From: Clostridia bacterium
Lineage (GTDB): Bacteria; Bacillota; Clostridia; Oscillospirales; CAG-272
Assembly (NCBI GenBank): GCA_017428635.1
Contig: JAFRQK010000046.1
Coordinates: 4,874 to 68,873 of the forward strand
Length of the DNA: 64,000 nt
Direction of reading: 5' to 3'
The position numbers and the translations under genes are program-made. The notes under the pieces are model-generated. The model was not told where the DNA came from. It saw nothing but the letters and a program-made list of their open reading frames with translations, and did not search any database. The stretch's first letter is position 1. Every line of letters starts with the position of its first letter. Below are positions 45,350 through 55,045 of the stretch, piece after piece.

Positions 45350-45436
45350 GCGGATATGGCGGAATTGGCAGACGCGCTAGATTCAGGTTCTAGTCGGGGC
45401 AACTCGGTGAAGGTTCAAGTCCTTTTATCCGCACCA
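45350..45436 (+). tRNA. tRNA-Leu (anticodon CAG), CCA encoded
   Basis: Manual cloverleaf: acceptor GCGGATA/TATCCGC, anticodon arm CTAGA-TTCAGGT-TCTAG, long variable arm, T-loop GGTTCAAGTCC. Confidence 0.9.
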
Positions 45437-45557
45437 AACAGTACAAATCCGAACCCTAAGCCGGTTGGCGAAGGGTTCGGATTTGTTGTTTATTTCGACT
45501 ATCCGAATTTCAACTCCAAGCAAGACAAACAGAAAATGAAAAACGGAGGTCAAGAAA

Positions 45558-45854
45558 ATGAATCTGAACATTGGTAACATTGGAGTCTGGGGATTCCGGC
45601 ACTATGATTATCTCAAGCAAAACCGCCCGTCAACCGTCGGTGTGATGCGCATGAACGGAACGCTTGAAGGGTATCTCAAAGAGGTCAATCAAGAAGCAAC
45701 GGAAATGCTTGAAACGCTTATCCGGCAATATGCAAAGGCGGAAGGCGTCACGGAGGCACTTAAACGCACAGATCAACTCGGCTGGGTGCTAAAAATGAAC
45801 TCCATCCGCAACCGCGCCGAAGAGGTTATACTAAACGAAATCATATACCGGTAA
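45558..45854 (+). CDS. TnpV-like transposon protein (N-terminally short)
   Basis: 98 aa. ...YLKQNRP...GTLEGYLKEVNQEATEMLETLIRQYAKAEGVTEALKRTDQLGWVLKMNSIRNRAEEVILNEIIY matches, from memory, the C-terminal roughly 90 aa pattern of TnpV of Tn4451-type elements. Confidence 0.55.
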   Translation: MNLNIGNIGVWGFRHYDYLKQNRPSTVGVMRMNGTLEGYLKEVNQEATEMLETLIRQYAKAEGVTEALKRTDQLGWVLKMNSIRNRAEEVILNEIIYR

Positions 45855-45861
45855 AACGCAT

Positions 45862-45895
45862 GAGGCGGGGAGATCAACTCCCCGCCTCGTTTTTG
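45862..45895. terminator. Bidirectional intrinsic terminator
   Basis: GAGGCGGGGA-GATCAAC-TCCCCGCCTCGTTTTT. Confidence 0.6.
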
Positions 45896-46180
45896 CTATT
45901 CCTTAGTATCCTCTTTCTTTAATATAATATAACTGCAACTTTTTCCGTTTGCCATTCTTATTACCCGCGCTGTTGATATTTTCCTTCCATGCGCTGCATT
46001 CATTTGACGTTTCGCTACTCCGCTTCTGTAATGACTTTTTAATCTTGGGGTTGCATGTGCGGATCCCTTCGAATATTTTAGTCCTATAGAGTCCAAATAC
46101 CTAAATATTTCTTCTTTAGTCATTTTTGAAAACATTTCATCAATTGATGAAGATACATTCAACTTACTCATTAACATCAC
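45896..46180 (-). CDS. Hypothetical small basic protein, overlaps the 3' end of the upstream gene
   Basis: About 91-94 aa and AT-rich. Candidate starts are at 46177 and 46171, overlapping the stop of ORF 46164..46685. No recognisable motif. Confidence 0.5.
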   Translation of the reverse strand: MMLMSKLNVSSSIDEMFSKMTKEEIFRYLDSIGLKYSKGSAHATPRLKSHYRSGVAKRQMNAAHGRKISTARVIRMANGKSCSYIILKKEDTKE

Positions 46181-46685
46181 CTTTCTTTATCATATGTAAA
46201 TATTTTATTGGGGTGTTATTTCTTATGCAAAACTCTTTTCTTCGTTTCCGAGTATCTATAAGCGTTTTATGAGCACGCTTTGTTACTGCAAAACTTGCGG
46301 TCATCAATTCTAATTGAGGTTTTGAATCCCAAATAACCTTAGCGATAGAACACTGGTTTTGCTCAGCATCCTTATCAAGTGTTATATTTAGTTTTTTACA
46401 CAAATGGTTTTCAGCTTCACTAAGAGCTTCTTTCCCTTCATCCGTGTCAAGATCAAGAATACTCTTTTCATCAACACGTAGTATAGCCAATACTACTGCA
46501 TCTGAATCTCTCCAATTCCAAGCGTCATTAAAATTGTAATAAAAATATATACCGGGTCCAAGCCAATCGTTTTTAGAGTTTGAAAGAATAAATTTACGGC
46601 TAGACATAATTTCACTAGCAGAAGATATATTTGTTCCATGAAATCCTGAAAATAATACTTTGCCCACTGTTTTTCTCCTTAACAT
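46164..46685 (-). CDS. Hypothetical protein with possible ADP-ribosyltransferase-like (H-Y-E order) motifs
   Basis: 173 aa containing GFHGT...WLGPGIYFY...RKEFCIRNNTPIKYLHMI, which by eye resembles the PARP-type H..Y..E arrangement and is also reminiscent of DUF3990. The CDS itself is well supported (ATG, AAAGGA SD). Confidence 0.45.
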   Translation of the reverse strand: MLRRKTVGKVLFSGFHGTNISSASEIMSSRKFILSNSKNDWLGPGIYFYYNFNDAWNWRDSDAVVLAILRVDEKSILDLDTDEGKEALSEAENHLCKKLNITLDKDAEQNQCSIAKVIWDSKPQLELMTASFAVTKRAHKTLIDTRKRRKEFCIRNNTPIKYLHMIKKGDVNE

Positions 46686-46835
46686 AATCCTTTATTTATC
46701 CTTTATTTCAAAAAAACAAATGCTTTGGCGTCCTTGTCTATTCCATCAATCAGTTTTGCAGAAGATATTCTCCTTACAAATTAGAGCAAAGCAGATAGTC
46801 CAACAGTTTGATCTTCATAGTGTGCTACTAATTGT

Positions 46836-47249
46836 TTATTTCACGGCACTTGTTTTATCAGATTGTTTATTACGACTGCTTTTCCACTCTTCAAATTCGC
46901 GTTTTCCTTCTTCTGATTCAAAAAACGCGCGGATATCGGGGAGCATATCGTCCACTATAGCTTGCAGGACGTATTTCGGCACATTGCATTCAGCGCGACG
47001 CTCGCGGAATGTATATTTGAATTGTACACGCAGCCGTGCCCAGAAACCGCCGTGTTCATACTCCTGAATGTCCTTCCAGTACGGCTCCAATCGTTCGGCA
47101 ACAGCTTTTTTGAACTCCCGGTCGATCTCCGCAGCCCGACCCTCGCCGAGCATTTCCGCAACCCGCTTCCTGCCGTACTGCTTCTCCATTTCAGCCAGTT
47201 GGCGCTTCACTTCAAATATCGTGTATTTCTGTAATATCTCTTTTCCCAT
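46836..47249 (-). CDS. Hypothetical protein (mobile-element backbone gene?)
   Basis: 137 aa with higher G+C than its neighbours. It lies directly downstream of structured-repeat copy L, mirroring how the recombinase sits downstream of copy R. Confidence 0.6.
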   Translation of the reverse strand: MGKEILQKYTIFEVKRQLAEMEKQYGRKRVAEMLGEGRAAEIDREFKKAVAERLEPYWKDIQEYEHGGFWARLRVQFKYTFRERRAECNVPKYVLQAIVDDMLPDIRAFFESEEGKREFEEWKSSRNKQSDKTSAVK

Positions 47250-47261
47250 AAATGTCTCCGT

Positions 47262-47498
47262 TCCTGCGGGGTATTAGGGGTGCGGGTGTCCGGTGGACAC
47301 CTCTGCCGGAGGCAGAAGCACCGACCGAGGCGGCAGCCGAGACCTCGCTAACAAGCAGCTGACGAGGCAGGCGTTGTGTTTGCGCAAGCAAACGCGATGC
47401 TTGCCGAAGTAATGCCGGGTATTTGGCTATCCAATTACGTTGCTTGTGAAGGTGTGCCGCCGGATTTGTACGTACAAATCCAGTGCTTGCTAAAACAA
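47262..47498 (-). ncRNA. Structured repeat, copy L (candidate leader/ncRNA)
   Basis: Its reverse complement aligns with 53242-53540. Conserved blocks are separated by hairpins whose differences are compensatory. Confidence 0.5.
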
Positions 47499-47511
47499 AC
47501 ATATTATATTG

Positions 47512-48444
47512 TTAATTGTTATTGTTTTTTATGTTGTGCTCTTCAATGTATTTCAAAAGTTTTGGTTCAGTCATTACTTCGTCATATTGAGACAAGTGCA
47601 TTTGCATACCTTTAATATCGGAAACTGCATCTTTTACAAAGGTCTCGAAGTCTGTATTTGTTTCTACTAATCTATCAACAGTATCCCAATCTATTTTCTC
47701 TCTTTCTCTAGCAGAAAACAATATCTCGCTCTGCTCAATATTTTCAGCATTCAACTTAATGAACCCAATGCCAAATGCATTATTTAATCTAAGCATTTCT
47801 TCGTATAGTTCAGTATCATCCTCATATGATAAAGCAACGAGGTATCCTTCATTTGCCCAGCTTGAATTAGATACAGCCTGAAAGAAATATTCACGTAGAT
47901 TTGAAAAGCAAATTGTTTTTTTTAATTCAAACGAAAACAATTTGAATTTGCTGTCATTTAACGCTTCCAGTAAATTCGTCGTCTGTTGCGAATAGTCATT
48001 GAATGGAAAGTAAACTCCAACCATATCTGGATGAAGCCACTCGTTCTCCCCGCGTTTCTTCTTCTTAGATTTTTCGTGGAAAATCGTTTTCGTTACACAG
48101 TTAAAATGACCATCTGCATAAACAAAACTCGCTAACAAAGGGTGAAGGTCTCTTTCCTTAAAACTTAATTCATCATTGGTTACTTCCGATGTCTTTTTAG
48201 GAACAATGCTTAGATCTTTAATGTAAAAAGTTGCAGGCCTTTTACTGTATTGATATAACCTTGATTGAGGATTATCTCGTATATCAAGATAAACTCTGGC
48301 CGCAATAGTTTTTACTGGAGTTTTTCCAATTGATGATAGTTTATCCCTAAACCCGTATTCTCCAGCTTTCTTCCATATTTCTTCAATGGAAAGCGGAGAT
48401 TGATGCTTTTCGAGTGTCAAATATACTAAATCAAGAAAAGTCAT
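47512..48444 (-). CDS. HARE-HTH domain protein with C-terminal PD-(D/E)xK-like nuclease domain
   Basis: The N-terminus LSIEEIWKKAGEYG...GKTPVKTIAARVYLDIRDNP...FYIK looks HARE-HTH-like. The C-terminus has ERDLHP...WLHPDMVGV...FSFELK...QAVSNSSWA (D...ExK...Q). I use the ATG at 48444; the track ORF starts at GTG 48450. Confidence 0.6.
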   Translation of the reverse strand: MTFLDLVYLTLEKHQSPLSIEEIWKKAGEYGFRDKLSSIGKTPVKTIAARVYLDIRDNPQSRLYQYSKRPATFYIKDLSIVPKKTSEVTNDELSFKERDLHPLLASFVYADGHFNCVTKTIFHEKSKKKKRGENEWLHPDMVGVYFPFNDYSQQTTNLLEALNDSKFKLFSFELKKTICFSNLREYFFQAVSNSSWANEGYLVALSYEDDTELYEEMLRLNNAFGIGFIKLNAENIEQSEILFSAREREKIDWDTVDRLVETNTDFETFVKDAVSDIKGMQMHLSQYDEVMTEPKLLKYIEEHNIKNNNN

Positions 48445-48454
48445 TTCCACACCC

Positions 48455-48931
48455 CTAAATCTTAGGTATCATTGTCGATGCTTCGGGAGCATTTTTAGTG
48501 ATGCTCCAAACAGCAACCTTCATCTTTTTGATACGCTTTCCGTCGCCGAAATCAAGCAAGTCTTCTCTTTTATAAACATTGAGTATTTTGTTCAAGGTTC
48601 CAAGATCCGCTGAGGTCATTAAAAAAGCTTCTTCCGGATCTATCAATTTGCAATACGCCCATAACTGACCCAGATCTCTAAGCGTTAAACTTGTAATTTT
48701 AGCCTCGATGAAAAAGAGCTTAAATCCTTTAGCATTCCTGACAATACCAAGCACATCTATTTGGATATCAATTCCAGTAGCAACGTCGTGGACAATACCA
48801 TATCTGCGTAAGACTCTGTCGAGCCTTTCGCTATGCGCATCCACAACAATCACTTCGTCATTTTTATATTTGTCTTTTAAGTACGTTTCCAACCATTGAC
48901 ACATAGGTGGATATAAGTCAAATTCTTTCAT
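48455..48931 (-). CDS. Small PD-(D/E)xK-type nuclease-fold protein
   Basis: 158 aa containing GIDIQIDVLGIV...KLFFIEAKI (D-x-n-E-x-K), the restriction-endonuclease-like core pattern. Confidence 0.5.
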   Translation of the reverse strand: MKEFDLYPPMCQWLETYLKDKYKNDEVIVVDAHSERLDRVLRRYGIVHDVATGIDIQIDVLGIVRNAKGFKLFFIEAKITSLTLRDLGQLWAYCKLIDPEEAFLMTSADLGTLNKILNVYKREDLLDFGDGKRIKKMKVAVWSITKNAPEASTMIPKI

Positions 48932-48936
48932 TTAAT

Positions 48937-49824
48937 TTACTCTCCATACCCAAGCGCTGCCGCAATATCTTTCCAGGAATTATAGTGGTTTCCCTTGATT
49001 TCAACAGGCAGAAAATCGTCATTTTCTCCAGGATGTATCGGTTTAACTTTTGTTTTTCCCGCACCTTCCCAATAATACTTATGTGTTACATCCTCGACTC
49101 TTTTTCCTTCATCGGCAAGGCCGTTTTTCAATTCATTAGAAAACTGATCTAATGCTTCTCGTTTATGGATTACACCAAACCCGACCGGAACAAATTCATT
49201 AGCCCATATTTTGATCTGGTGCTCTTTTTTCCAAAAATCCGGCTTTCCTTCATTGTACTTTGATAAATTTCCATCGCGCATATTAGGATGTGCCCAATCT
49301 ATTGCTTGAACCGGAATGTCCACATCTTTCAGCAATTTGCAAACATCTACTACCAAATACCAATTATGCGGCACTTCAATGTACACTCTATGCATATATG
49401 GCTTAAAGAAATAGTTGCTTCTTCTAATGTAACCTGTAACATCAGCAAAACCTTGAAGGAAAGAAATCTTTTGATCTCTTGAGAATCGAAACACCTCGTT
49501 ATCAATCCTTATGTTTTCATGAGAAGCAGCATTTCCAACAAATCTAATTATTTCTCGCATTAAATAGTCATCATTTGGCTTAACAAACGAAATAATCGAA
49601 TAGTTATCCTGTTGCGTGAACGATAATCCCGTTCCAACAAGTGGCTCGATGATTGAACGTATATCAGTTATACTGGCTCGAACATAAATTCTGACATCGT
49701 TATTGTTTTCTGTAGCAAGTTTTTTGTGTGGAATTTCAATGGAAATTGTCGTCTCAAATTGTCCCCTTTTTATTTCGCCGTTTCCGCATATCATTCCAAG
49801 CAAATATGACATTTCTCTATTCAT
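48937..49824 (-). CDS. Hypothetical protein with two degenerate LAGLIDADG-like motifs
   Basis: 295 aa. SYLLGMICGNGEI (aa 6-18) and ISFLQGFADVTGYI (aa about 119-132) are spaced like a two-domain LAGLIDADG enzyme. The canonical acidic residues are replaced (N and T). Confidence 0.4.
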   Translation of the reverse strand: MNREMSYLLGMICGNGEIKRGQFETTISIEIPHKKLATENNNDVRIYVRASITDIRSIIEPLVGTGLSFTQQDNYSIISFVKPNDDYLMREIIRFVGNAASHENIRIDNEVFRFSRDQKISFLQGFADVTGYIRRSNYFFKPYMHRVYIEVPHNWYLVVDVCKLLKDVDIPVQAIDWAHPNMRDGNLSKYNEGKPDFWKKEHQIKIWANEFVPVGFGVIHKREALDQFSNELKNGLADEGKRVEDVTHKYYWEGAGKTKVKPIHPGENDDFLPVEIKGNHYNSWKDIAAALGYGE

Positions 49825-49841
49825 TAGCTATCTCCACTCTC

Positions 49842-50189
49842 TCAATTCAAACCGATTTTGTAACCAATTTTGAGTAATTCTGAAATCACCCCATTATCAT
49901 TTAAGCGATATTTATACTCGCTTCGATACACAGTATTGCGAGTAAACATCTTTAATAATGCAGTTGGTGGCGTTTCGGGAACATAAAGGCGTAATTCAAG
50001 TCCCCATTTATTAGCGTTGTTTTCAAGAAGTATGATTCCTTCACTTTGATCATCAATTCTTCCCCTATGAGTAGCGTTGTAATTAATAATAAAGTTGTTA
50101 ATTGCTCCCGGCTTTCCTTCGGCTTCAATAAAGAATGAATTACCTTTTGAAGAAATATCACGCAAAAAATCGATCAGTTTGTCTATCAT
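49842..50189 (-). CDS. Hypothetical protein (about 115 aa), weak paralogue of neighbouring ORFs
   Basis: I place the start at ATG 50189 behind AAAGGAG (MIDKLIDFLRDISSKGNSFFIE...). The LRLYV...RLNDNGVISELLKIGYKIG pattern resembles ORF 50203..50658. Confidence 0.55.
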   Translation of the reverse strand: MIDKLIDFLRDISSKGNSFFIEAEGKPGAINNFIINYNATHRGRIDDQSEGIILLENNANKWGLELRLYVPETPPTALLKMFTRNTVYRSEYKYRLNDNGVISELLKIGYKIGLN

Positions 50190-50202
50190 AAATAAAACTC
50201 CT

Positions 50203-50658
50203 TTACAAATTATAGCCTTTTTCAAATTCATCCATTAGATGTGGATGGTGTTTTCTTACTGCATCACGAATAGCAACAACATCCTGGTATTCTCCAAATG
50301 AAAAACCATAGTCACGAACCACTTTTTCAACAAATTTACCCTTATTTATGCGTTTAACATATGATCCTGTGCCCACTCCAAGAAAAGGAATAAGCACTTG
50401 TGGACAGTTTCGGATGTTATGGAAATATATACGCAATTGGCATCCTTGTTTCATAACATTCCCACCGGTTGTCTCGCCCTGTGTTATCGGGAAATATGGC
50501 GCATTGGGGAACTCTCTTTCAAAAATGAACCCCTTCTCTTCAGGGATTTGAGCTTCGATCAATCCTATACGACCCGGTGCCGCAAGGTATCCCAAGATTA
50601 AACATAGGTCTTTTTCAGGTACTGAAATATCTAAAGCACGATTGCTCAATAGTGACAT
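50203..50658 (-). CDS. Hypothetical protein (151 aa), weak paralogue of neighbouring ORFs
   Basis: LILGYLAAPGRIGLIE (LAGLIDADG-like helix). LRIYFHNIRNCPQVLIPFLGVGTGSY resembles VRIYVRASITDIRSIIEPLVGTGLSF of ORF 48937..49824. Confidence 0.55.
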   Translation of the reverse strand: MSLLSNRALDISVPEKDLCLILGYLAAPGRIGLIEAQIPEEKGFIFEREFPNAPYFPITQGETTGGNVMKQGCQLRIYFHNIRNCPQVLIPFLGVGTGSYVKRINKGKFVEKVVRDYGFSFGEYQDVVAIRDAVRKHHPHLMDEFEKGYNL

Positions 50659-50662
50659 GGAC

Positions 50663-51436
50663 TTACTCCTTTATGAATATCAAGAGATATTCGTGTATTT
50701 TATTGATTCTAAATTTATATGGATATCCTAACGGACGCATATTGTTATAATCTTGTTGTCTGTCCCAAATGATTAGGTCGTCATAGACAAAGCCTATGCT
50801 TTTAAGAGCAGACGCCAAATCACTATGCAATGGATAAAAAGAGCTCTTTTTTCTTATATCCATCACATTTACAATGCAGTAAGATCCTTTTTTCAGCACT
50901 CTATGAACAGATGAAAAAAGCGTCGTAAGCGATTGGATAAACTCATCGTAGTTTGGAATATTGCCAATATCGGTTTTTTTATCAGAATAATTTACAGAGT
51001 CTTTTTGATCGGCACTTCTTTTCATATTTAGAATATCCCAATACGGTGGCGAAGTGACGCAAATGTCAAAATAATCATTTGGAAGCGTTTTGAGAACAGA
51101 AAAACTGTCTCCGTTTATAATGCGAATTCCGTTAGTGTTGCCAATGCGATCCATGGCTACCTTACAAAAATCTTCTGATAAATCTATTCCAACCGCTTCA
51201 CGATTCTGCAATTTAGCAGCAACTGTCGTTGAACCAATACCATTGAATGGATCAAGCACCCGTCCGTCCGGTTTAGAAAAAGTACGAATGATCTTTTCAC
51301 ATAATTCTACAGGGTAAGAAGCCGGATGCTTCAATGCCTTTTCTTCTCTTGTTTTTGATATATCTCTCCAAATGCTAAATGAATTCTGGAGCCATTCTTT
51401 TCCAGAAAGGTCGTTACATTTTTTAGAGTTGTCCAT
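50663..51436 (-). CDS. DNA methyltransferase, N4-cytosine/N6-adenine type (PF01555-like)
   Basis: HPASYPVEL...VLDPFNGIGSTTVAA (AdoMet motif I) precedes TSPPYWD (catalytic motif IV). I use the ATG at 51436 behind AAGGTGG; the track ORF starts at TTG 51442. Confidence 0.85.
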   Translation of the reverse strand: MDNSKKCNDLSGKEWLQNSFSIWRDISKTREEKALKHPASYPVELCEKIIRTFSKPDGRVLDPFNGIGSTTVAAKLQNREAVGIDLSEDFCKVAMDRIGNTNGIRIINGDSFSVLKTLPNDYFDICVTSPPYWDILNMKRSADQKDSVNYSDKKTDIGNIPNYDEFIQSLTTLFSSVHRVLKKGSYCIVNVMDIRKKSSFYPLHSDLASALKSIGFVYDDLIIWDRQQDYNNMRPLGYPYKFRINKIHEYLLIFIKE

Positions 51437-52835
51437 CTGCAATCCACCTTTTTGATTGAATCCTTTTCATTTCAGAATCAATGAAATCCGATTCTTTTTT
51501 TGTAATATTATAAGCCGCATATACAATTTGATTTAATTGCTCTAAACTGTTAAACCAATCTTGGTTCATATAGTCATCAGATTCCAAACTGCCAACTAAC
51601 TTCAAGATTTGTTCAAAATACTGATCCTGAAGTTTTCTGCAGGGTAGAGGTATTTTCTTGAGGTATTTCGCATCGGTATGCATAGTCAACTTTGAGTAAT
51701 TGTAACAATACTTGTATAAGAACAAATTGCAAAGTCTGGAGTGTAGTATTCCGAGAATATAGTGACACATTTTCGGATCACCGTCAGTAAAAACCGTAAC
51801 GGTTTGTGAAGCTTCTAAATTCCCGCCGAACGCTGCTATTACACCAGCCTCAGCGCTATATATATTCTGTATAAATAACGTGTTTCCCTCTGTTGGCAAA
51901 TCGTGGTCTTTGTACCCGAATTTCCGAATGTCTTTGCCGGTAATTGCTTCTTTCGATGTTGACCTTCCGCGTCCAACGTATCCATTGCAAACATCATTCA
52001 ATGTTTTATATGAAGTTGATAACTTTTTGTAAATTGAAAAATCTTCAGAACAGTTAAAAATCAAAATTGTGTCATTATAAAAACTTTGTGGAATAGATGT
52101 CATCGTAACAAATCTATTACTTGAGTATTTTTTTATTTTGATTTTATGATTTTTATCAGCTTTAGCATTTTTAATGGTTAAAACAATCTGCTCACCGCGA
52201 ACATGCTTAAAATATGCTCCAAGATCAACAATTGAAACAATAGATTTTTCCTCAAGTAATTCACGCCTAAACAAACTATAAGAATGAACATGAAGAAAAT
52301 TCTTTGGGATAATATATGAAACCAATCCATTGGGCTTAACGAGGTCCAGCGCACGCATGAGAGCCGCAACAAAAAGATTGTTTCCGGAATCCGACACTCT
52401 ACGTCTAAACAAATAATCGGATTGTAATACGACTTCCGAAGTCAACGGGACATATGGCGGGTTTCCTATAATAATATCAGGATGAACGTCTAAACAAAGA
52501 TGCGAAAGAGTGACGGTTGCATCATTGCCAATTGAATCATCGGCCACAAAGAAAGCTCCGTGTATATTGTTGCGGCAAAAATCAATGGCGTTGTTGTCTT
52601 GATCAATTCCATAAACGTTTTCACACCCATGTTTAATTGCAGCATAAACAAATACGCCAGCGCCACAACATGGATCCAAGATCACAGATGATTTATCCGG
52701 ATTAAGTTCAAAAAGCATTTTTTCGGCAAGAGATAAGTCAGTATAATAAATGCCATTGTCCTTTTTAAAATCTGAATCAAGAGAGCTTTCATAAACATTC
52801 GAAGCATCAATATATGCATTCTGAGCAAGTGACAT
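51423..52835 (-). CDS. N6-adenine DNA methyltransferase, gamma class (Eco57I/TaqI-like) with C-terminal target-recognition domain
   Basis: GIYYTDLSLAEKM, ILDPCCGAGVFV (motif I) and IIGNPPYV (motif IV); 470 aa; AAGGAGGG SD. Confidence 0.9.
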   Translation of the reverse strand: MSLAQNAYIDASNVYESSLDSDFKKDNGIYYTDLSLAEKMLFELNPDKSSVILDPCCGAGVFVYAAIKHGCENVYGIDQDNNAIDFCRNNIHGAFFVADDSIGNDATVTLSHLCLDVHPDIIIGNPPYVPLTSEVVLQSDYLFRRRVSDSGNNLFVAALMRALDLVKPNGLVSYIIPKNFLHVHSYSLFRRELLEEKSIVSIVDLGAYFKHVRGEQIVLTIKNAKADKNHKIKIKKYSSNRFVTMTSIPQSFYNDTILIFNCSEDFSIYKKLSTSYKTLNDVCNGYVGRGRSTSKEAITGKDIRKFGYKDHDLPTEGNTLFIQNIYSAEAGVIAAFGGNLEASQTVTVFTDGDPKMCHYILGILHSRLCNLFLYKYCYNYSKLTMHTDAKYLKKIPLPCRKLQDQYFEQILKLVGSLESDDYMNQDWFNSLEQLNQIVYAAYNITKKESDFIDSEMKRIQSKRWIADGQL

Positions 52836-52852
52836 TGTAAGCCCTCCTTCAA

Positions 52853-53074
52853 TTAATTCTGGCTTTTTTCTGTAATGTCCATAATATCGCCGATATTACA
52901 TTCCAAAACACCACAAATCTTCATCATGACTTCCATAGATACCGGTTGATTTTTACTGAGTTTAGACAATGTAGTTGAACCAATTCCTGTAGCTTCTTTT
53001 AATTGCATTTTCTTCATGTTTTTGTCTATAAGCAATTTCCAAAGTTTGTTGTACGTAACAGCCAACAGTATCAC
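52853..53074 (-). CDS. XRE-family HTH protein (controller/C-protein-like)
   Basis: VTYNKLWKLLIDKNMKKMQLKEATGIGSTTLSKLSKNQPVSMEVMMKICGVLECNIGDIMD. It is the first gene of the operon. The true start may be the TTG at 53065, downstream of GAGGTG. Confidence 0.8.
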   Translation of the reverse strand: MILLAVTYNKLWKLLIDKNMKKMQLKEATGIGSTTLSKLSKNQPVSMEVMMKICGVLECNIGDIMDITEKSQN

Positions 53075-53094
53075 CTCATTTCAAATCTAATAGT

Positions 53095-53162
53095 ATTATA
53101 TCATATCTTCCGATAGAATGCAATATAAAATCGATAATAGAAAAGAAAATTTTCTATTATCG
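53095..53162 (-). promoter_or_regulatory. Operon promoter plus upstream 13-bp-arm palindrome (C-box-like operator)
   Basis: Minus strand reads TTGCAT-17 nt-TATAAT (53123..53095). CGATAATAGAAAA-5 nt-TTTTCTATTATCG (53132-53162) lies just upstream of the -35. Confidence 0.5.
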
Positions 53163-53241
53163 GCAATTATTTTTTCTTTACCTATGGGCAAATCGGCTGA
53201 AATATGATATACTTTTCTTCGCAGAAACAAAGACGCGGCGC

Positions 53242-53540
53242 TGTTTCAGCAAGCACTGGAAAATGTGTACATTTTCCGGCGGTGCTGTTTCGGCAAGCAT
53301 CGTGCTTTGACTCCACCGGAGCAAAACACCACGGCATTGCCTTCACAAGCAACGACTTTGGACTCCCACGTCCAAAGTCAGACTTGCTCGCAGCTCTGCA
53401 AGCATCGCGGAATGATATCATTCCGCACCCGCTTGCTTCGCCCGCCGCTTGTTAGGGAGGTCTCGGCTGCCGGCTCGGTCAGTGCTTCTGCCTACGGCAG
53501 AGGTCTCCACCGGAGACCCGCACCCCTAAAACCCCTGCGA
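53242..53540 (+). ncRNA. Structured repeat, copy R (candidate leader/ncRNA upstream of the recombinase)
   Basis: Homologous to the reverse complement of 47262-47498. A long-range helix pairs AAGCACTG (53251-58) with CAGTGCTT (53480-87), and several internal hairpins show covariation. Confidence 0.5.
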
Positions 53541-53575
53541 AACAATCTTGAGCAGAAGGAGGTGAGAAGAAGAAA

Positions 53576-55045
53576 ATGAAAGGCGTGATCTACGCAAGGT
53601 ATTCCAGCGACAATCAGCGTGAAGAGTCTATCGAAGGTCAGATCCGTGAATGTAAGGCTTTTGCCTACAAAAACGGAATCGACATTATTGAGATCTACAT
53701 CGACCGTGCGTTGTCAGCAAAAACGGATAACCGACCCGATTTTCAGCGGCTGATCAAGGAAAGCGGAAGCAAGAAGTTTGAAGTCTTGCTCGTATGGAAA
53801 CTCGACCGTTTCGCACTGAACAAGTTCGACTCGGCGCACTACAAACGGATCCTGAAAAACAACGGTGTTCGTGTTGTATCGGCAACCGAAGTGATATCGA
53901 CCGGTCCCGAAGGGATCTTGCTTGAATCAATGCTCGAGGGAATGGCGGAATACTATTCAGCCGATCTTTCGGAAAAGGTCATGCGCGGACAGACCGAAAA
54001 CGCACTGAAATGTATGTATAACGGCGGTACGCTCCCAATAGGGTACGTCATCGACAAGGAACAGCACTTTCAGATCGATCCGGTCGCGGCACCGCTGGTA
54101 TTGCAGGCGTTTACCGATTACTCAAACGGCAAGTCGATGCGTGAAGTAACGGACATGCTGAATCTTGCAGGAATCCGCACCAAGCGCGGCGGAAAGGTCA
54201 GCATCAACAGCGTGACGAGAATGCTGCATAACCGCAAGTACATTGGTGAGTATCAATACCGCGACATCGTTCATCCGCACGGAATCCCGGCGATCGTCCC
54301 GGAAGAACTGTTTGAACGCGTACAGGAACGATTGGCTAAAACAAAGAAAGCCCCTGCCAAGTTCAAGGCAGAAGACGAGTATCTGTTAACGACCAAACTG
54401 TTCTGCGGCAAATGCAACTGTTATATGGCGGGAGAATCCGGCACGAGCCACACGGGCATCGTTCATCGGTATTACAAATGCGTGAGCGTGAAGAACCATA
54501 AGGGCTGCGACAAAAAGTCTGTACAAAAAGAGTGGATCGAAAATCTCGTCATCGACCAGATCAAAAAGATCCTGTTCGACGATGAAATGATCGAAAAACT
54601 CGCGGATATGGGCATGGAACGTCAGCGCAAAGAAAACACGGTGCTTCCCATGCTGAAACGCCAGCTTGCCGAAACGGAAAAAGGCATCCGCAACTTCGTT
54701 GACGCGATCCAGCAAGGGATCATCACGGAATCGACGAAGGAGCGGCTTGAAGGGTTGGAAAGAACAAAGAAAGAGCTTTCTGCTCAAATCGCACGGGAAG
54801 AATTACTCCAACCGCCGGAATTCACACGGGATCAGTTCCTGTTCTGGTTCGAGCGGATGCGCAAGTACGACACCACGAAACTCGTTCACCGTCGCCGTCT
54901 GATCGACAGCTTTGTCAACGCGATATACCTTTACGACGACAGGATCACCCTCGTCTTCAATTTCAAAGACGGCACAAAAACGATAACTTTCGCCGAGCTT
55001 GAGGAATCAGGCTTGGGTTCGGATATAAATGCACTCGCTGCATAA
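53576..55045 (+). CDS. Large serine recombinase
   Basis: MKGVIYARYSSDNQ (catalytic Ser), resolvase domain, recombinase domain, zinc ribbon CGKCNCYM...YYKCVSVKNHKGC, and a coiled-coil C-terminus; 489 aa; AAGGAGGTG SD. Confidence 0.95.
   Translation: MKGVIYARYSSDNQREESIEGQIRECKAFAYKNGIDIIEIYIDRALSAKTDNRPDFQRLIKESGSKKFEVLLVWKLDRFALNKFDSAHYKRILKNNGVRVVSATEVISTGPEGILLESMLEGMAEYYSADLSEKVMRGQTENALKCMYNGGTLPIGYVIDKEQHFQIDPVAAPLVLQAFTDYSNGKSMREVTDMLNLAGIRTKRGGKVSINSVTRMLHNRKYIGEYQYRDIVHPHGIPAIVPEELFERVQERLAKTKKAPAKFKAEDEYLLTTKLFCGKCNCYMAGESGTSHTGIVHRYYKCVSVKNHKGCDKKSVQKEWIENLVIDQIKKILFDDEMIEKLADMGMERQRKENTVLPMLKRQLAETEKGIRNFVDAIQQGIITESTKERLEGLERTKKELSAQIAREELLQPPEFTRDQFLFWFERMRKYDTTKLVHRRRLIDSFVNAIYLYDDRITLVFNFKDGTKTITFAELEESGLGSDINALAA

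Follow-up and report, generated by a model that had tools for sequence, protein, structure and literature searches.

A LAGLIDADG protein lacking its catalytic residues is tied to a small predicted nuclease in a putative Type II restriction-modification operon

A 64,000-nucleotide stretch of a Clostridia bacterium genome (assembly GCA_017428635.1, contig JAFRQK010000046.1, positions 4,874 to 68,873; hereafter the window) carries the gene series C-M1-M2-p151-p115-p295-p158 at 48455-53074. We consider it reasonably probable that this series encodes an uncharacterised Type II restriction-modification (R-M) system directed to an asymmetric site, in which p295, a catalytically dead LAGLIDADG protein, would read the DNA and p158, a small protein of the PD-(D/E)xK nuclease type, would cut it. 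With slightly less assurance we lean towards the more general proposal of a widespread class of systems, in which a dead single-chain LAGLIDADG protein has been domesticated as the sequence reader and the cutting is done by a separate or fused PD-(D/E)xK nuclease. An earlier note on this DNA had described three consecutive genes, p151, p115 and p295, as encoding degenerate LAGLIDADG-like domains inside an R-M-type operon. The feature is real and widespread, and that description was partly correct: the three open reading frames (ORFs) lie where it placed them, all on the minus strand, although the middle one is likely shorter (115 amino acids, aa). The gene next to p295, p158, lies outside the segment that the note covered (48937-50658).

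The AlphaFold2 model of p295, based on an alignment of 43 sequences, has a predicted local distance difference test score (pLDDT) of 89.5 and a predicted template modelling score (pTM) of 0.90, and consists of two alpha-beta-beta-alpha-beta-beta-alpha repeats, the pseudo-dimer core of the LAGLIDADG superfamily. When the model was compared with the PDB using Foldseek, LAGLIDADG proteins accounted for all 50 of the matches listed (E-values down to 1.6e-6, probability 1.0), including I-AniI, I-DmoI, bI3 maturase, WhiA, PI-SceI, PI-PfuI, I-OnuI and I-SceI. Judged by the model, p295 has a real two-domain LAGLIDADG fold, as its two motifs had led the earlier note to propose. Sequence comparisons give little indication of this fold: p295 matched no Pfam family and no LAGLIDADG model there, the only hit being a chance-level one to BPA_C (E 0.15); it matched no NCBIfam family; and both sequence and profile searches against PDB sequences (profile E up to 10) returned no match. 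One relative (P0061) carries the source name 'DOD-type homing endonuclease', which hints at a PROSITE-type match.

The two LAGLIDADG-like motifs, LLGMICGNG (G10, G16) and LQGFADVTG (G125, G131), have glycines at motif positions 3 and 9 and are among the most conserved parts of the p295 family. In the 43 aligned sequences G10, G14, N15, G16, G125, D128 and T130 are invariant, and at least 90% of them retain G131. The canonical acidic positions (position 8 of each motif) are occupied by N15 and T130, exactly the replacements that had been read from the sequence at the outset; the alignment of homologues contains an invariant acidic residue, D128, which is at neither canonical position. The same holds well beyond the close relatives. 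An exhaustive profile search yielded a superfamily of 313 representative clusters, and in the aligned members of the best 150 of these 313 the residue at position 15 is R, N, K, G or S and that at position 130 is A, T, C, G, S, I, N or V, never D or E. By these residues the canonical active site of p295 is predicted to be dead. The p295 family comprises 1821 clusters at 90% identity. Its universally conserved polar motifs (D128, WxHPNxRD and EHQxK) lie near domain 2, and its C-terminal tail (residues ~265-294) resembles a repeated motif of the protein P0393 that matches the NUMOD1 and I-TevI_DNA-bd models of Pfam, which hints at an extra small DNA-binding element of the NUMOD1/I-TevI type. The setting of p295 is always an operon with p158, mostly with methyltransferases as well, and not an intron, an intein or a free-standing homing element. 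A p295-like dead LAGLIDADG domain is also found at the C-terminus of the large proteins P0304, P0307, P0310, P0323 and P0370 (991-1299 aa), whose first 700-1100 residues match nothing in Pfam or PADLOC and contain no Walker A, DExx or NPPY motif.

The partner protein p158 is predicted to be an intact PD-(D/E)xK nuclease. Residues D59, E76, A77, K78 and Q89, which make up the PD-(D/E)xK signature, are invariant in 29 sequences, and a weak match to the YhcG_C PDDEXK model of Pfam was obtained for 9 of these 29 members, that of the window p158 itself being sub-threshold. A search of PDB sequences with the p158 profile (E up to 10) gave no match. The association of the two proteins was followed through 86 related loci, 80 of which come from species-representative genomes, each with a p295 relative of at least 60% identity, and represent Clostridia, Bacteroidales, Spirochaetes, Campylobacter, Desulfovibrionaceae, Endomicrobia, Anaerolineae and other taxa. 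A p158 homologue is found directly downstream of p295 in every one of the 86 loci, the two genes mostly overlapping or abutting each other (gaps mostly -11 to +7 nt), and the pairwise identities of the two proteins are correlated (r = 0.73).

The linkage becomes covalent in a sister clade, where at least 23 representative clusters (539-557 aa) unite a p295-like region and a p158-like domain in one chain, the D, E, K and Q residues of the latter being intact. In these ~540-aa fusions a Cys4 element is inserted in the p295-like region. In the metagenomic loci of this clade (L087-L166, e.g. L100:6001-8125) the fusion gene is followed by a free ~165-aa p158-like gene, and an M2-like SPPY methyltransferase with an adjoining NPPF/NPPY or DPPY methyltransferase faces them from the opposite strand. 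The free p158 paralogue has PD...LNR(S/E) in place of ExK and E in place of Q89, by which it may be either an inactive pseudo-nuclease or a protein with a non-canonical active site. The suggestion of the earlier note that LAGLIDADG could serve here as a catalytic fold of restriction enzymes was not sustained, as the catalytic positions are never acidic and an intact PD-(D/E)xK protein is adjacent and, in the sister clade, fused. This is not a sixth catalytic fold of restriction endonucleases; it is the recognition module and the architecture that are probably new. The proposed novelty in R-M systems is thereby kept in part: a dead LAGLIDADG protein is a constant component of an R-M-type operon, for which no prior description was found, but a new catalytic fold it is not.

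The R-M character of the operon comes from its methyltransferases. M1 (NPPY) and M2 (SPPY) retain intact catalytic motifs and stand beside the nuclease genes; M1 has a weak TaqI_C-like specificity domain, and M2, judging by its SPPY motif, is probably an N4-methylcytosine (m4C) methyltransferase. Methyltransferases were found in most of the related loci, with only a few loci lacking resolved ones. Most loci have the M1 and M2 types, and others have an EcoRI-type N6-methyladenine (m6A) methyltransferase together with a C5 methyltransferase, either as separate proteins or fused as one protein of 702-723 aa. The combination of one adenine and one cytosine (N4 or C5) methyltransferase is a usual mark of asymmetric Type IIS/IIA sites, at which each strand is served by an enzyme of its own (compare BsrDI and BtsI, PMC1950550). 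The difference in type within each recognised methyltransferase pair is in keeping with an asymmetric target and with a single-chain LAGLIDADG reader, itself asymmetric.

A C-type gene occupies the same position in the related loci, and in the window the C gene and a promoter-like site are closely preceded by a near-perfect inverted repeat (53131-53163), a probable C-box operator. The smallest versions of the system are found on mobile replicons. The 6495-bp plasmid NZ_CP060181.1 of Lactiplantibacillus plantarum P9 (L167) encodes a ~700-aa methyltransferase and p295-like and p158-like proteins, and otherwise carries only replication and toxin-antitoxin genes. This methyltransferase is annotated as cytosine-5, and its size suggests the fused type. 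A comparable set of three genes occurs in two gut phages, including PV036410.1 (L168). In the plasmid and in the inspected phage, the genes of the p295 and p158 type are annotated as hypothetical proteins, as is every annotated copy of the p295, p158 and p115/p151 families that we have seen. The plasmid strain, being cultured, offers a convenient experimental entry point.

From these observations we infer the following mode of action. A monomeric, pseudo-dimeric scaffold in which neither canonical acidic residue for metal binding is left, p295 would bind an asymmetric target by its beta-sheet saddle, possibly aided by the NUMOD1-like C-terminal tail, and would position or dock p158 on the DNA. 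As a minimal PD-(D/E)xK nuclease, p158 would make the cut, probably dimerising or acting in two copies. One strand each would be protected by M1 (m6A) and M2 (probably m4C), and the C protein with the upstream inverted repeat would delay expression of the nuclease. The proteins p151 and p115 may represent optional accessories of a new small fold, perhaps acting as adaptors or cleavage modulators. A bolder version, in which p295 would be a Type I-like specificity subunit common to the nuclease and the very small M2, with the p115/p151 domains as adaptors, is hinted at because a single fusion of M2 to a p115-type domain (L020), its sole direct hint, has been seen.

The two small proteins do not share the LAGLIDADG fold of p295. 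The start of p115 is most likely Met15, giving a protein of 115 rather than 129 aa, because its homologues are 111-119 aa long. BLASTP of p151 and p115 against p295 produced nothing significant, and hhalign of the two families, each against the p295 family, gave probabilities below 1%. When aligned to each other by hhalign, the p151 and p115 families gave E 0.0014 over 91 columns; 22 intermediate ORFs of the related loci match the hidden Markov models of both, and E22, K61, R67, Y69, R95 and N97 are invariant in the joint alignment. By these sequence comparisons p151 and p115 are distant paralogues of each other, p151 having Q where p115 has E24 and E65. The p115 model (pLDDT 94.4) has the topology a-b-a-b-b-a-b-b-a. 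Its best Foldseek match in the PDB had E 0.21 and a template modelling (TM) score below 0.3, with no LAGLIDADG protein among the 50 matches listed, and the best one in BFVD had E 0.59, again with TM below 0.3. The fold of p115 was left without assignment because neither search gave a significant match. Structure prediction thus bore out the LAGLIDADG proposal for p295 and assigned p115 a different topology; together with the null results of BLASTP and hhalign, this goes against the LAGLIDADG-like nature that p151 and p115 had been given. The block of sequence thought to be common to all three proteins is shared by p151 and p115 but not by p295, as VRIYV is part of a helix in the p295 model whereas the matching residues form a strand in the p115 model.

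The p151 and p115 proteins are dispensable, optional accessories of the system. Copies of this gene type number 0, 1 and 2 in 15, 45 and 26 of the 86 loci, respectively, their position varies (before p295 or after p158), and none was found in the fusion-clade loci examined. A domain of this type is fused to M2 in one metagenome-assembled genome (L020:4837-5973), and in ~13 loci (including L029:3751-4776, L042, L045, L050 and L052) it is fused, directly upstream of p295, to a NOV_C (PF13020) nuclease-like domain, which we take to be a member of the PD-(D/E)xK clan of Pfam. Both fusions suggest that the p115/p151-type domain is an adaptor or a DNA-binding module. Scans of p151, p115, p295 and p158 against Pfam, NCBIfam, PADLOC and PHROGs gave sub-threshold matches only, such as the PADLOC 'HEase' model for p151 (E 0.0022) and OloB for p115. 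We also considered p115 as a cryptic PD-(D/E)xK nuclease (E/D57...E65-x-R67) and rejected this assignment, since position 57 is variable, E65 is replaced by Q in the p151-type and NOV_C-fused members, and no nuclease is found among the Foldseek matches.

These results bear directly on the original proposal that p151, p115 and p295 are three degenerate LAGLIDADG proteins forming one heteromeric saddle. Its attractions are the N-terminal motif LILGYLAAPGRIG of p151, in which the glycines are spaced as in LAGLIDADG, the order of a helix and then a strand at the start of both small proteins, and the identity of the best BFVD match of p115, an intein-containing protein, although this match extends over 52 columns and is not significant (E 0.59). 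The confident p115 model with its different topology and with no LAGLIDADG among the 50 PDB matches listed, the hhalign probabilities below 1% against p295, and the absence of the small genes from 15 of the 86 loci and from all fusion-clade loci examined, along with their variable position, leave this proposal largely refuted and, in our estimate, very improbable. A heteromeric LAGLIDADG module built from the three genes is hard to reconcile with two members that have another fold and are dispensable.

Two further explanations concern the division of labour between p295 and p158, and we regard each as unlikely. Under one of them, p295 would itself nick one strand through a non-canonical active site, and the other strand would be cut by p158, as in BtsI/BsrDI or BspD6I. 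The organisation is indeed like that of BtsI, in which the B and A subunits have 328 and 164 aa and are accompanied by two amino-methyltransferases (PMC1950550); the polar motifs D128, WxHPNxRD and EHQxK are universally conserved near domain 2; and a double-strand cut is not explained by the single active site of p158 alone. However, both canonical LAGLIDADG acidic residues are missing in every clade, p295 has neither the QR dipeptide nor a match to D58/E72/Q85-R86 of BtsI B (PMC1950550), and the p295 and p158 profiles match no PDB sequence although crystal structures of the BtsI-related enzyme BsmI have been published (PMC11889245). Moreover, in the fusion clade the LAGLIDADG part is supplemented by a PD-(D/E)xK domain, and this suggests a scaffold that does not itself cut. 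The other explanation, in our view also improbable, takes p158 as the complete restriction enzyme, a small homodimer, and p295 as a regulator, chaperone or inhibitor. PvuII-like PD-(D/E)xK enzymes of ~157 aa are known to be self-sufficient, and dead LAGLIDADG proteins have turned into regulators (WhiA) or RNA chaperones (maturases), both of which are among the Foldseek matches of p295. This view is opposed by the p295-p158 adjacency in 86 of 86 loci, with mostly overlapping genes and covariation, and by the repeated covalent fusion of the two proteins. The recognised methyltransferase pairs of unlike type argue against the cleavage of palindromic DNA by a homodimeric enzyme, and the conservation of p295 (at least 60% identity across phyla) is stronger than expected of a mere regulator.

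The preferred reading, with p295 as the reader and p158 as the cutter, has its own difficulties. The DNA binding and specificity of p295 are inferred, and WhiA, which is also a dead LAGLIDADG protein, gets most of its specific DNA binding from an added helix-turn-helix (HTH) domain. The sites of homing endonucleases span 14-22 bp, much more than methyltransferase sites usually do, and because of this the mode of recognition would need to differ. A 158-aa PD-(D/E)xK protein could be a self-sufficient homodimer like PvuII, one PD-(D/E)xK site does not account for a two-strand cut, and the free small subunit of the fusion clade has no canonical ExK. The conserved polar motifs of p295 (D128, HPN-RD, EHQ-K) may have a catalytic role. 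In some loci a single methyltransferase is recognised. Finally, a characterised member may exist, as novelty was judged by Pfam, NCBIfam, PADLOC and the literature, with REBASE outside this scope.

The operon is part of a low-GC island at ~45.4-55.1 kb of the window (37-40% GC versus ~58%), which has tRNA-Leu(cag) (45350-45436) at its boundary and includes the genes for TnpV (45558-45854) and a large serine recombinase (53576-55045). The island (45350-55045) is probably a small integrative or mobilisable element; a search for flanking attachment-site direct repeats around it found only short, chance-level repeats. The genes C, M1, M2, p151, p115, p295, p158 and p312 form one array in the island (Table 1). 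The last of them, p312, carries a HARE-HTH domain in its N-terminal part, and a PD...ExK-like motif (HPDMVGVY...FSFELKK) was noticed by eye. This gene is found downstream of p158 in 8 of the 86 related loci, which makes it an optional neighbour, and it may be a second, optional nuclease. A 173-aa ORF on the minus strand at 46164-46685 matches phrog_14664 of unknown function (E 2.9e-11) and, weakly, the PADLOC model PD-T4-9_A (E 6e-4), and may be another defence-related gene of the same island.

Table 1. Genes of the array and its candidate operator, in window coordinates
Feature	Position	Strand	Description
p312	47512..48450	-	312 aa; HARE-HTH, PF05066 E 2e-9
p158	48455..48931	-	small PD-(D/E)xK nuclease (D59, E76-A-K78, Q89), predicted from the motif and weak Pfam matches
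p295	48937..49824	-	295 aa; predicted double LAGLIDADG fold (AlphaFold2 model, Foldseek, family invariants)
p115	49842..50189	-	115 aa; small alpha/beta protein; ORF reaches 50231, likely start Met15
p151	50203..50658	-	151 aa; predicted paralogue of p115
M2	50663..51442	-	259-aa N4/N6-type DNA methyltransferase, SPPY; PF01555 E 3.6e-35; MTase_II models
M1	51423..52835	-	470-aa gamma-type N6-adenine methyltransferase, NPPY; Eco57I/N6_Mtase
C	52853..53074	-	73-aa HTH_26 controller-type protein; PF13443 E 8.6e-19
candidate C-box inverted repeat	53131..53163	.	13-14 bp arms CGATAATAGAAAA / TTTTCTATTATCG

Restriction enzymes and homing endonucleases are usually seen as separate worlds, with HNH, GIY-YIG and PD-(D/E)xK as their common catalytic folds, and LAGLIDADG is, to our knowledge, the one major homing-endonuclease fold without a known role in R-M. 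If the proposed system is confirmed, it would be the first case of a LAGLIDADG fold working inside an R-M system and a natural counterpart of the engineered chimeras of meganucleases and restriction enzymes. Should p295 indeed read DNA, the family would show that a LAGLIDADG scaffold can be taken over by defence systems purely for specificity, the split and fused forms (p295 with p158; the ~540-aa fusions) would provide a natural series to study the coupling of recognition and catalysis, and enzymologists would gain a compact, possibly re-targetable platform for an asymmetric-site nuclease or nickase. In addition, this work puts names to three sizeable families, p295, p158 and the p115/p151 domain.

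Comparison with known systems places the operon between several well-studied groups. A literature search for LAGLIDADG in R-M systems found only engineered fusions and general reviews, LAGLIDADG is not mentioned in a comprehensive 2014 review of Type II enzymes, and no description of a dead LAGLIDADG protein in an R-M operon was found in the Pfam, NCBIfam and PADLOC models or in the literature searched. None of the restriction-endonuclease models of PADLOC and NCBIfam matched p295 or p158, and none of those of PADLOC matched the ~540-aa fusions. With the canonical homing endonucleases I-DmoI, I-AniI and I-SceI, p295 shares the fold and the two glycine-bearing helix motifs; it differs from them in having no catalytic Asp/Glu, no Pfam LAGLIDADG match and no intron or intein, and in adjoining a PD-(D/E)xK gene and, in most loci, methyltransferases. 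Closer in their loss of function are WhiA/DUF199 (3hyi, Foldseek E 2.1e-5) and bI3 maturase (2ab5, E 6e-6), which, like p295, are monomeric double-LAGLIDADG scaffolds without the catalytic acidic residues. In these proteins the fold is reused for nucleic-acid binding, as is proposed for p295. However, their roles are in the regulation of transcription or the splicing of introns, and no nuclease is partnered with them, whereas p295 belongs to an R-M operon and is tied or fused to a nuclease, and no sequence similarity between p295 and either of them was detectable.

The closest functional analogues of the p295-p158 system are the heterodimeric Type IIS/IIT restriction enzymes BtsI and BsrDI; in these and in BspD6I, site recognition and the nicking of one strand are tasks of the large subunit. 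The large subunit is of ~300-500 aa and the PD-(D/E)xK small subunit, inactive alone, of ~160-220 aa; BtsI itself combines a 328-aa B subunit and a 164-aa A subunit with two amino-methyltransferases, and m6A and m4C were identified for BsrDI (PMC1950550). The fusion clade resembles BtsI/BsrDI in having one canonical and one non-canonical PD-(D/E)xK-like unit distributed over two polypeptides. The BtsI/BsrDI large subunits start with a PD-Xn-E-X12-QR nuclease site, which is followed by the recognition region (PMC1950550), whereas p295 has I, Q, D and D at residues 58, 72, 85 and 86, corresponding in number to D58, E72 and Q85-R86 of BtsI B, and no QR. In the structure of the related BsmI, a central domain accompanies two nicking domains of the PD-(D/E)xK type; its published description makes no mention of a LAGLIDADG fold (PMC11889245). 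Membership in the BtsI/BsrDI group, considered for the similar subunit sizes and methyltransferase types, was rejected, as the motifs differ and there is no match to BsmI; p295 and p158 were set apart from BtsI and BsrDI by published motif descriptions and not by sequence alignment. The closest parallel in design is man-made. The engineered fusion of inactive I-SceI to PvuII combines a dead LAGLIDADG binder with a small PD-(D/E)xK cutter, and its target is composed of an 18-bp site and a PvuII site (PMC3258161), whereas p295-p158 is natural, widespread, accompanied by methyltransferases and made of two subunits or fused. By this precedent, the combination of a dead LAGLIDADG protein and a PD-(D/E)xK cutter is known to be a design that works (PMC3258161).

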